A stretch of 63,971 nt of DNA, counting the filler, from Acidimicrobiia bacterium (GTDB lineage: Bacteria > Actinomycetota > Acidimicrobiia > Spongiisociales > CAZKJJ01), in NCBI GenBank assembly GCA_046759765.1. It is 4 parts of 4 records of this genome, joined end to end, with 100 filler letters (N's around TTAATTAATTAA, not from the genome) between each part and the next. Parts side by side here need not be neighbours in the genome. Positions count along the whole stretch, not along the records: positions 1 to 18,447 come from JBHICV010000036.1; 3 more parts are not named here. One strand, 5' to 3'. Positions 1 through 3,000 of the stretch are shown here, piece by piece. How positions within the stretch are numbered: position 1 is the first letter of the stretch; the number at the start of each line of letters is the position of its first letter. The position numbers were made by a program.

Positions 1-3000
1 GCCAACAGATCACCCTTCTCCCATGAGCTCTCCCCCCGATTGAAGGACAACTCCACCGATTCTGTTCGACGCCGAACGAACCGCGCCGGCGTGCTCAGTC
101 GGCGCTGAGCAAGGCTGAACAACACCGCGGCAACAGCCGCGAGGATGGCGGCGAGGGATACCGTCAGGGATTGGGCCCAATAGCCGACTACCACCGGGAA
201 GGCTCCCCAAGCCACGGCAAAACCGAGGTCGGTGTGGAGGAGCGGTGACCACTCCAGGGAGTAGGCGGCGGCCATCAAGATCCCCGCTAGTGCCCAGGCC
301 AGCACCCACGGAGAGATGGCGACCGCCCCGATAACGGCAACGATCAAGGAGGAGGCCAGACCACCGACGCCGAAGACGAGCAGTGAGCGGTCGGACACCC
401 TCGTGCCCAACGGCCGGCCGTTGTATTCGTCGAGTGCATGAGCACCGATGCCAAGTCCGAAAAAGAAAGCCGTGACAGTGCCGATCAGCCGCCATCCATC
501 CAGTGTGGTCGCCAGTCCGGCACCGATCGCGACGTACGAAAGGTGCCACAGGGTGTAAGGCAGGTGAAGAATCGCCACGAGGTCGCCTGCCGTCGTGCCG
601 GTAGGAGCGTAATAGGCGGGCCGGGTCATTGCTTCGTGCCCCACATCAGGAGACCGCCTCCCAACGACATCCGTCGGATTCCGATGTCCGTCAGGCCCGA
701 CGCCTGCCAGATGCTGGCCAGAACCTCGGGGGGGTACTCAGCGTGGAATTCATCGATGCTCCGTCCGAGGAACGACCCGACCCGGCCCCAACCGTTGCCG
801 ATCATGGTGCCGGCCATAGGAAGCCCTATCTGCGTGTAGAGCCTCCATGCAACACCAGGCCATCCGGCCGGCCTGCCGAACTCGAGCATGCCGATCCTGC
901 CGCCGGGCTTCACGACCCGAGCGAGCTCGGACATGCAGGAGGCAACGTCTGTGACGTAGCGCAGCAGGTATCCGAAAGCGACCCCGTCGAATGTGTCGCT
1001 ACGAAGCGGAAGCGCCATGCCTGTTGCCAGCACACCGGTGGCTCCCCGGCGAACGGCATGTTGCAACATGTTCTCGCTCTGGTCGACAGAAACCACCTGA
1101 GCGCCTCGCCTGCTGAGCAGACGCGTAATCGAGCCGGTGCCTGCCGCGACGTCGAGAAACCGGGATCCAGGCCTCACATCGAGGCCCCGCACGAGCTCCT
1201 GCCTCCAACGATTGTCTTGAGCCAGGCTGAGGACCTTTGCCCACCTCTCGTAATCCCGTGCGATGGGCGCAAAGAGGCCCAAGGCAACTGACTCCGGCGC
1301 ATCGGCGAGATCGCCCACGCCGTGACAGTACCGATGTTGGAACTCTTGACGTGATGGGATGAGCCTCTACAGTTCTCACTTCATGCAGGTCAGCTACTAC
1401 GCCTATTTCATCTACCGTCTCCCCGGAGCACGGTACGGGGCGATGCTTATGTAGCCACCTGCTCAAATCGCACTAACTGGATGACCCGTACCGAACCGTC
1501 GGAACGGGTCTTTTTGATGGCCATGTCAACCAGGAAGGAGGTGACGAGAAATGGACCAATTCAGCGACGAGCAGCACCGAACGTGGGCGGAGCTCTACCG
1601 ACGTCAGGTGCCGCGCATAAGAAAGCACGCCTGCGCCGACTACTTAGCAGGCTTCGACATGCTGGAGTTGCCGGCCAGCGAGATACCCTCGGTTGGCTTT
1701 CTCAACTCAAAGATCACCCCTGCCACTGGCTGGAAAGTGATCAGGACCACCGTCCGGTACTCGGATGCAGACCAGTGGTATGAGCACTTCGACCGGAGGG
1801 AGTTCCTCATCACCGACTACATGCGGTCATGGGACGAGCTCGACTGGACTCCGGAGCCCGACATGTTCCACGACATCTTCGGCCATCTGCCTTTCTTGAT
1901 GCTGCCCCACTACACCGCGCTGCAGGAGCTATTCGCGCCGGCCTACTGGAGGGCAACGACCGAAGAGGAGCGAGAGAACATCAAACGGCTGGCATGGTTC
2001 AGCACCGAGTTCGGCGTCATATCCGAGAACGGCTCTCGCAAGATCTTCGGTACCGGTCTCATGTCGGGGGGCGACGAGATGGACAACGTGATGGCGGGCA
2101 ATGTGCCGATCCATCCGTTCACGATCGAGAATGTCTTGGTCCGCAACAAGGCTGTGGACGAGCAGAACAAGGAGCTGTTCGAGTTCTTGTCGATCGAGGA
2201 GCTAGAGAAGGAGCTAAGCCGCTACTTCGACCTGGTGATGAGCGGAGGCGGCGTGTTCTAGTCGTCGAGGTCTCCGCGAGCGCGACCTTGTACGAAATCT
2301 ATCGCTTCGAGAGTGGCGTTGTAAACGAAGCGCTCCCGCTTGGGAGAGGCCAGGAACCGTCCCGCCGCAATCAGCGGTGATCGGTCAGCAAGCACCTTTG
2401 ACTCGACGATGGCCGCCCGCGACGTCTTTACCGAGTGGGCGACCATTATCGGCGAGGAGGAGTTGTCCTCGGAGGCTGCCTGCGCGAGAGCTCCGTGGAG
2501 GGCTTCCTCGGGCCCCTCGAAACCGGATATGGCTGCCACCGCTCCGACGGGGTCTCGTCTGCGGATGCTGTCGAGAACGACGCCTGCATCTGCCCGCGGC
2601 GCCGGTGCCGGGTCCGAGGCTCTGTCGGGAGTGTCGAATCGTTGCGTCCACTGAACGAACCAGACGGCGTGAAACAAGTCTCTTAGCACCTCTGGGGAAG
2701 GATCGACGGACCACGCCCAGCGCAGAGCGTCGAGATAGGTCATGGTGTGGGTGACATCGAGCCAGCCCCACTCGTTCGTGTCATCGGTGTCCAGGTCGAT
2801 ATCGAAGCGGCGGAATCTCGTCGCCGCCGCCCGGGAGGTGGCGTTCAGGATCTCCGAAACCGGGACTCCCATGGCTAGCGCGTCCCGCAGAGCCTCGAAA
2901 GCCGACTCAGGGCTTTCGTCCAGGATCGTCCTCTCGAAAAGGGCAGCGTCGAAGCTGCGTCCGTTCTGTCGGCTGAGCTACCTGCTCGGAGACGGCTCCG

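Follow-up and report, generated by a model that had tools for sequence, protein, structure and literature searches.

The region ahead of the phenylalanine hydroxylase gene (phhA) of this Acidimicrobiia bacterium very probably acts as a transcription attenuator that is controlled by a translating ribosome and responds to charged tRNA-Tyr, as judged from its sequence and predicted folds. An attenuator that turns on tyrosine synthesis when tyrosine is short had been proposed in a preliminary description, and we support it with high confidence because the leader anatomy, the predicted fold switching, the conservation in related loci, the enrichment of Tyr codons, the replacement of the leader by Tyr T-boxes in some homologues and the missing tyrosine pathway all fit this reading. 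Positions given here refer to the window, i.e., the whole stretch of 63,971 nucleotides analyzed, which comes from the source genome (G000; 92% complete). Comparisons were made with the other genome of the same family (G001; 84% complete) and with a metagenome locus (L115).

Layout of the phhA leader region

The hexamers claimed for a promoter are present on the plus strand as TTGACG (1346–1351) and TACAGT (1368–1373), 16 nt apart, and form the sole match of a promoter scan between positions 900 and 2000, yet this promoter-like site (1346–1373) is weak on its own (1 match versus 0.4 ± 0.6 in shuffles). Downstream on the same strand lies the leader open reading frame (ORF), which is indeed 23 codons long as previously described (1383–1454; MQVSYYAYFIYRLPGARYGAMLM, stop codon at 1452–1454). 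It carries Tyr at codons 5, 6, 8 and 11, the putative sensing run, and again at codon 18, with a single Phe at codon 9. Tyr accounts for ~2% of codons in long frames, which gives a probability of ~5e-6 for four or more Tyr in seven codons at a single given place.

Four segments of the transcript are predicted to pair in alternative ways. Segment 1 (1413–1418), the core of the protector helix with the Tyr11 codon inside it, would pair with 1430–1435 when no ribosome is present. Segment 2 (1431–1439), the antiterminator arm, can form nine perfect pairs with 1485–1493. These lie in the left arm (segment 3, 1483–1494) of an intrinsic terminator hairpin that also has a right arm (segment 4, 1499–1510) and is followed by a U-tract of five T's (1511–1515), all on the plus strand. 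Folding bears out the terminator described ahead of phhA, with a predicted hairpin (1483–1510) of 7 bp, an A·A mismatch, 4 bp and a 4-nt loop at about −17 to −19 kcal/mol; the fold of the leader as a whole (z = −3.94) was equalled by none of 200 shuffles. A simple promoter-terminator scan did not list a plus strand terminator before phhA, probably because of the internal mismatch. Searches of Rfam found no relevant family in positions 1–4000 of the window, nor any such family at gathering score in 15 loci.

The phhA gene itself (1551–2261, plus strand) encodes a pterin-dependent aromatic amino acid hydroxylase of the phenylalanine-hydroxylase type (236 aa; PF00351) and is preceded by a strong Shine-Dalgarno sequence (AAGGAGGTG, 1535–1543, plus strand). 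Sequestration of this site by the hairpin was ruled out, since it lies outside the hairpin, 25 nt downstream of it. On the other side, a gene for a UbiE/MenG-like methyltransferase (626–1318, minus strand) is divergent from phhA, and the plus strand terminator would therefore end only transcripts begun in or near the 64-nt gap between this gene and the leader.

No Shine-Dalgarno sequence was found upstream of the leader ATG at 1383. In G000, the motif TANNNT is enriched 6, 7, 8 and 9 nt before starts, with counts of 75, 64, 51 and 58 versus 2–6 in controls (4503 candidate starts of long frames, with scaled internal positions as controls), and its commonest spacing for ATG starts is 9 nt. The TACAGT hexamer stands at just this distance of 9 nt from the leader ATG, and the corresponding spacing in G001 is 6 nt. 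The leader transcript is thus probably leaderless or nearly so, to judge from sequence. An in-frame ATG further upstream, at 1359, was rejected as the leader start, as it sits in the spacer of the promoter-like site, whose transcripts are unlikely to include it.

Predicted fold switching and its conservation

The competing pairings proposed earlier, in which one part of the leader pairs either with the Tyr-codon region or with the left arm of the terminator, are reproduced by the predicted folds. The 2:3 duplex (1431–1439/1485–1493) has a predicted energy of −19.0 kcal/mol, compared with −9.8 ± 2.3 kcal/mol in 2000 shuffles (p = 0.001). Co-transcriptional folding was modeled on a transcript ending at 1498, in the terminator loop, with ribosome footprints of 10, 13 and 16 nt. 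Without a ribosome, the 1:2 helix dominated (P = 0.965) over the 2:3 duplex (P = 0.003). With the A site on codons 2–11, the probability of 2:3 pairing was at least 0.96 at all three footprints, and with the ribosome anywhere from codon 16 to the stop codon it was 0. The antiterminator is thus predicted for any stall at codons 2–11, and Tyr is not singled out by the fold; a ribosome stalled on Tyr18, a codon within segment 2, gave a probability of 0.

At equilibrium the full-length transcript behaves differently. As reported previously, the stalled G000 fold keeps the terminator as its preferred structure. In our folds, the terminator had a probability of 0.97–1.0 at every ribosome position and an advantage of 3.2–6.0 kcal/mol. 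The G000 switch must therefore be kinetic. This result does not refute a switch, because four of five E. coli attenuators behave likewise in the same model: trpL, hisL, thrL and leuL all kept the terminator when stalled (P = 0.95–1.0), and only pheL among these five flipped, as did G001. Equilibrium folding was accordingly rejected as a test of switching. The sequestration of the left arm in the stalled state was 0.62–0.90 in the five E. coli leaders and 0.74 in G000.

A looser measure, which counts every pairing of the left arm with upstream sequence, was not significant for G000 (5 of 40 shuffles scored as high). We applied it to 36 leaders with a terminator, a set beside which five further leaders had no terminator by pattern and for which the pattern was widened after some of the tails had been viewed. 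The stalled value exceeded the value at the stop codon by 0.2 in 29 of these leaders and the ribosome-free value by 0.2 in 10, while seven scored above 95% of their shuffles. As a group, the leaders averaged 0.63, which exceeds the 0.50 of shuffles. The protector 1:2 helix is predicted clearly in G000 and L115, and is weak in G001 and many homologues.

The relatives within the family retain this arrangement. The G001 leader has the run YAYY described for it and starts at the same −168 position, and its predicted switch to the antiterminator upon stalling was reproduced, with G001 flipping even at equilibrium, although its segments 2 and 3 pair even without a ribosome (0.74). The antiterminator also stood out against shuffles in both G001 (p = 0.0145) and L115 (p = 0.0105). 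All three of these family-type leaders retain Tyr at codons 8 and 11. One position co-varies across segments 2, 3 and 4, as A/T/A in G000 and G/C/G in G001 and L115, a covariation that comes from three sequences and is reached by 175 of 500 column shuffles. The outer seven pairs of the terminator are kept in 21 of 21 cells for the three sequences, and one of these pairs differs through matching changes in both arms. A quick tree of 113 proteins places G000, G001 and L115 on one branch (support 97) within a mostly Acidimicrobiia branch of 37 members (support 97), where the leader is found only in those three; the closest phhA relatives, among the matches listed, are Acidimicrobiia.

Of the features of a classical attenuator that can be sought by sequence and folding, the Tyr run, terminator, antiterminator and protector helix are found here in sequence or predicted folds; the exception is covariation, which has little statistical strength with three sequences. 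In the mechanism that we infer, from start site, translation, stalling and termination through to the direction of the response and the enzyme's substrate, transcription would begin with the leader ATG or immediately upstream of it. With ample tyrosine, the ribosome would reach the stop codon (1452–1454) and mask segment 2, so that the 3:4 hairpin and the U-tract would terminate transcription before phhA. When Tyr-tRNA is scarce, the ribosome would stall at Tyr5, 6, 8 or 11 and mask segment 1, leaving segment 2 free to pair with segment 3 once this is transcribed; the terminator would then be blocked and phhA transcribed. Without any ribosome, the 1:2 helix would form and the terminator prevail. 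The PhhA enzyme would make tyrosine from imported Phe.

Tyr leaders and T-boxes among homologues

We examined the upstream regions of homologues in a sample of loci near the query, to which each of two collection scans contributed its best 80 matches. The sample held 194 loci, of which 191 included the 5′ end of the gene and 180 had at least 250 nt upstream, and these were grouped into 113 clusters at 90% identity; L115 falls outside this set due to its short flank. Among the matches listed, a short upstream ORF with at least three Tyr in eight codons was found in 40 of the 113 clusters, compared with 1 in the reverse complement and 1.5 in shuffles, and one with at least four Tyr in eight codons in 29 of the 113 (0 and 0.2, respectively). 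One of the 40 (L170) resembles AT-rich noise. When all 20 amino acids were tested in the upstream ORFs of the 113 clusters listed, none but Tyr was in excess to such a degree. A terminator accompanied 31 of the 40 Tyr-leader clusters versus 6 of the 73 others among the matches listed, with kin not being independent. It had been stated that only 2 of 31 phhA loci have the leader; such rarity is borne out inside the order, with the leader at 2 of 34 loci among the matches listed, and does not extend beyond it, where the 40 clusters of 113 apply.

By record title, many of the carriers among the matches listed are Anaerolineae, with single carriers from Gemmatimonadota (L074), Acidobacteriota (L078), Pacebacteria (L071) and an archaeal record (L042). 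In the last, a leader ending in YSYYYYC stands upstream of a hydroxylase homologue; we think it unlikely that this leader acts as a ribosome-coupled switch in an archaeon. Among distant hydroxylases of the same class (25–35% identity), a run of three Tyr was absent from all 20 loci. To look for a common origin of the leaders of this family and those of Chloroflexota, an RNA model built from three sequences was run against 68 sources; it matched only three further leaders, those of L062 (E = 2e-4), L188 (E = 0.2) and L185 (E = 0.83); two further weak matches in G000 were rejected, since they lie inside coding frames.

Six loci carried a terminator only, and three of these matched the T-box (L179, 89.3 bits, E = 1e-18; L061, 51.1 bits; L048, 48.3 bits; E values up to 4e-8), all below the gathering score of 93 and all with UAC (Tyr) at the aligned specifier position. 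A fourth locus (L190) gave a weak match (E = 0.35). No T-box (RF00230) match was found in positions 1–4000 of the window at E values up to 5, nor in G000 or G001. The apparent replacement of the leader by Tyr T-boxes gives independent support for uncharged tRNA-Tyr as the signal. T-box regulation of a phenylalanine-4-hydroxylase in the Bacillus cereus group is described in an excerpt of PMC2494555, and resembles our case in the type of target and in read-through on uncharged tRNA. Swaps between T-boxes and leader peptides are described for hisS in a section of PMC2965389. The T-box RNA binds tRNA directly, without translation, whereas here a leader ORF would be translated.

These comparisons bear on other explanations of the locus. 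The leader and terminator may control phhA in another way, with a protein or the speed of translation setting the fold, or with the terminator merely damping expression. We regard this as unlikely. The equilibrium folds that retain the terminator and the weak protector helix in many homologues speak for it, as do the leaders of Streptomyces coelicolor ilvB and leuA, in which codon changes misfit classical attenuation according to a section of PMC1262725, with the ilvB leader, which looks much like this one, giving no response to them; against it, only Tyr is enriched in leaders across phyla among the matches listed, with Phe making up just 1.2% of residues in Tyr-run leaders, and Tyr T-boxes take the place of the leader on the same gene. 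Less probable still is that the leader encodes a functional Tyr-rich peptide, e.g., a substrate of the hydroxylase, with the terminator ending its transcript and phhA expressed by fixed read-through. The motif YR.PG.R that follows the Tyr run in the three family-type leaders would suit such a peptide, but the shared residues overlap segments 1 and 2 and are thus explained by base pairing. Moreover, the leader peptides of homologues are otherwise alike only in the Tyr run, neither G000 nor G001 has a modifying cluster close to the leader, and T-boxes substitute for the ORF elsewhere.

Chance, i.e., an untranslated Tyr-rich frame beside an unrelated terminator, is equally improbable: G000 does have 25 short frames with at least three Tyr in eight codons and the promoter alone is not significant, but this is the sole real case among 491 terminator-like sites in G000, G001 and L115 share its start position, the register of its Tyr codons and its pairings, the excess is family-wide (40 versus 1–1.5, among the matches listed) and no plus strand gene ends upstream. 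The scan of the 491 sites gave two Tyr-run matches, the phhA leader and one on contig C251 that was rejected because it belongs to the end of a long membrane-protein frame (543 codons); the statement that the phhA leader is the only Tyr-cluster leader with a terminator in this genome was therefore correct.

The hydroxylase, its metabolic setting and known systems

The product of phhA matches PF00351 (E = 1.2e-26), and its best NCBIfam match is to phenylalanine 4-monooxygenase, although it remains below the cut-offs (NF008877, 191.5 bits versus 247; TIGR01267, 160 versus 264.75). By sequence, the protein belongs to a divergent clade that is formally outside the phenylalanine 4-monooxygenase equivalogs. 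The best match in the PDB is the phenylalanine hydroxylase (PAH) of Chromobacterium violaceum (E = 5e-36), and the predicted model (pLDDT 93.8) finds its best fold match in the PAH of Colwellia (TM 0.90), with Trp and Tyr hydroxylases scoring nearly equally to PAHs. Residues H107, H112, E153 and W149 are invariant in 50 aligned proteins, and H107, H112 and E153 are what we take to be the 2-His-1-Glu iron ligands. W149 aligns with W180 of C. violaceum and is Trp in 109 of 110 proteins. An excerpt of PMC4029321 describes W180 as a residue for substrate affinity that is Phe in a variant engineered for Trp hydroxylation. At the position of Y179 in C. violaceum the protein has A148, and R69 or Y70 stands at that of L101; these substitutions make the clade atypical. 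Sequence and model suggest that the enzyme converts Phe to Tyr.

This conversion seems, from the gene content, to be the only synthetic route to tyrosine in G000. Neither G000 nor G001 had matches over cut-off for chorismate synthase, prephenate dehydratase, prephenate dehydrogenase, 4-hydroxyphenylpyruvate dioxygenase (HPPD) or HmgA, and the genes aroA, aroC, pheA, tyrA and hppD were not found in G000. The sole EPSP-family match in G000 was rejected as aroA, being MurA, and a weak PDH_N match was rejected as prephenate dehydrogenase, being nearest to ProC. Three relatives in the order have matches for both chorismate synthase and HPPD. The searches did find pterin-4a-carbinolamine dehydratase and GTP cyclohydrolase I.

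TyrA-family matches were found in 7 of 29 genomes with a Tyr leader or T-box versus 26 of 48 without, in a tally made by hand over genomes of unstated completeness, in which leader-free genomes tend to be larger and kinship inflates p-values; it covers the 77 genomes behind 77 of the best 80 genome loci, leaving out L086, L087 and L092. Among genomes titled Chloroflexota, the respective counts were 6 of 23 and 12 of 12. The TyrA match is likewise missing from several Acidimicrobiia without the leader. Absence of HPPD was rejected as a marker of leader-bearing genomes, as 20 of the 27 that have a Tyr leader also have HPPD, compared with 37 of 48 without; the leader is therefore no mark of a purely anabolic gene.

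The mechanism proposed here is well known; what sets the phhA leader apart is which amino acid would be sensed, which gene is targeted and that its translation probably starts leaderless. With E. coli trpL, pheL, hisL, thrL and leuL it shares a run of codons for the product, segments 1–4 with predicted 1:2, 2:3 and 3:4 pairings, and a U-tract. Unlike classical attenuators, it has Tyr codons, precedes a Phe-salvaging hydroxylase rather than a de novo pathway, lacks a Shine-Dalgarno sequence and is probably leaderless. To our knowledge, the textbook leader-peptide attenuators respond to Trp, Phe, His, Thr, Leu and Ile/Val, and Tyr is absent from them. Comparative surveys of attenuators and T-boxes were reportedly made by the Gelfand, Lyubetsky and Merino groups. 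Our literature search, with supplementary lists of predicted attenuators outside its scope, returned neither a Tyr-codon leader-peptide attenuator nor leader-peptide attenuation of phhA.

Mycobacterial leaderless attenuators with polycysteine upstream ORFs (uORFs) are said to operate without an intrinsic terminator. They resemble the phhA leader in having an amino-acid-run uORF in an actinobacterium with an apparent start at the 5′ end of the transcript, whereas the latter has a predicted intrinsic terminator and the full four-segment layout. Cys-run leaders without terminators appear in a section of PMC1262725, together with candidate trp and leuS attenuators in Corynebacterium and Streptomyces, and that section gives no conserved RNA element before tyrosine genes in the Actinobacteria studied. 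The nearest earlier claim of Tyr-tRNA attenuation concerns another target gene, Shewanella aroF, listed as an ‘Attenuator sensing tyr-tRNA’ in Table 3 of PMC2659441, an entry that cites Camakaris et al. 1980 on E. coli aroF-tyrA; we found no Tyr-run ORF within 260 nt upstream of E. coli aroF. In Pseudomonas and Shewanella, excerpts of PMC1173090 and PMC3223726 describe activation of phhABC by PhhR/TyrR, a protein activator acting at a sigma-54 promoter in catabolism. There too aromatic amino acids control phenylalanine hydroxylase, whereas we predict an RNA switch of opposite logic, on when tyrosine is short, in genomes where HPPD and HmgA were not found.

We consider the chances to be slightly better than even that these leaders form an unpublished class of Tyr attenuators, spread over Chloroflexota, Acidimicrobiia, Gemmatimonadota, Acidobacteriota and Patescibacteria, attached to one hydroxylase clade, interchangeable with Tyr T-boxes and leaderless in the family of G000. 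A Tyr attenuator on phhA would, if true, fill a gap among leader-peptide attenuators and offer a clear swap of leader peptide and T-box on one gene; the degree of surprise is moderate, and the phhA leader is a compact, testable candidate for a tyrosine sensor. In uncultured bacteria of sediment and sludge, Tyr leaders may also help to recognize Phe-to-Tyr salvage from sequence. If the proposal holds, the class would point to microbes whose synthesis of tyrosine relies solely on the hydroxylation of imported Phe, and PhhA would be induced by starvation to serve biosynthesis instead of opening a catabolic pathway.

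Tyrosine-rich leaders on other hydroxylase homologues

Among the loci with homologues of the hydroxylase, a 16-codon ORF, MHKPAAQSKYSYYYYC*, lies 131 nt upstream of the homologue in L042 (1867-1917), a record titled Archaeon GW2011_AR15. A hairpin follows the ORF, and the start of the leader is able to pair downstream (fold, z -1.88); no U-tract terminator was found after the ORF with the terminator pattern used in our analysis. This leader is a possible Tyr-sensing candidate in a record titled as archaeal. Tyr-run leaders were also found ~150 nt upstream of the gene in L071 (..QQYYYTK..) and L188 (..QYGYYYT..), which sit on a three-member branch together with a record assigned to Pacebacteria by title. 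In the remaining member, L190, the Tyr-run leader is replaced by a region (98-295) that matches the T-box model weakly.

T-box leaders

T-box leaders precede the homologues in L179 (1056-1346), L061 (1570-1850) and L048 (1508-1732) as well, and these three, out of four T-boxes when the weak match in L190 is counted, carry a UAC specifier. Since L048 has another T-box core motif closer to the hydroxylase gene, and L061 and L179 each have a second hairpin, these three leaders may be tandem.

The hydroxylase clade and its genomic setting

In 109 of the 110 proteins of the clade (window 1551-2261 and homologues), the position of C. violaceum Y179 is Ala. In the L101 loop Arg is invariant and Tyr nearly so. 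The clade may differ from studied PAHs in substrate range or pterin use.

Contig C36 covers only window positions 1-18447, with N spacers at 18448-18547, 36627-36726 and 54664-54763 separating the joined contigs. Three neighbouring frames on the minus strand (5027-6982) resemble, by eye, TadE/TadG-type pilus accessory genes. Leaderless genes appear common in the genome under study (G000), because a TANNNT signal is strong 6-9 nt upstream of start codons genome-wide.

Aromatic amino acid supply

No RF00230 T-box was found in G000 or in G001, the other genome of its family; three relatives from the same order have one. Neither the end of the shikimate pathway (aroA, aroC) nor pheA or tyrA was found in G000 or G001, so the family to which both belong appears to be an aromatic amino acid auxotroph.
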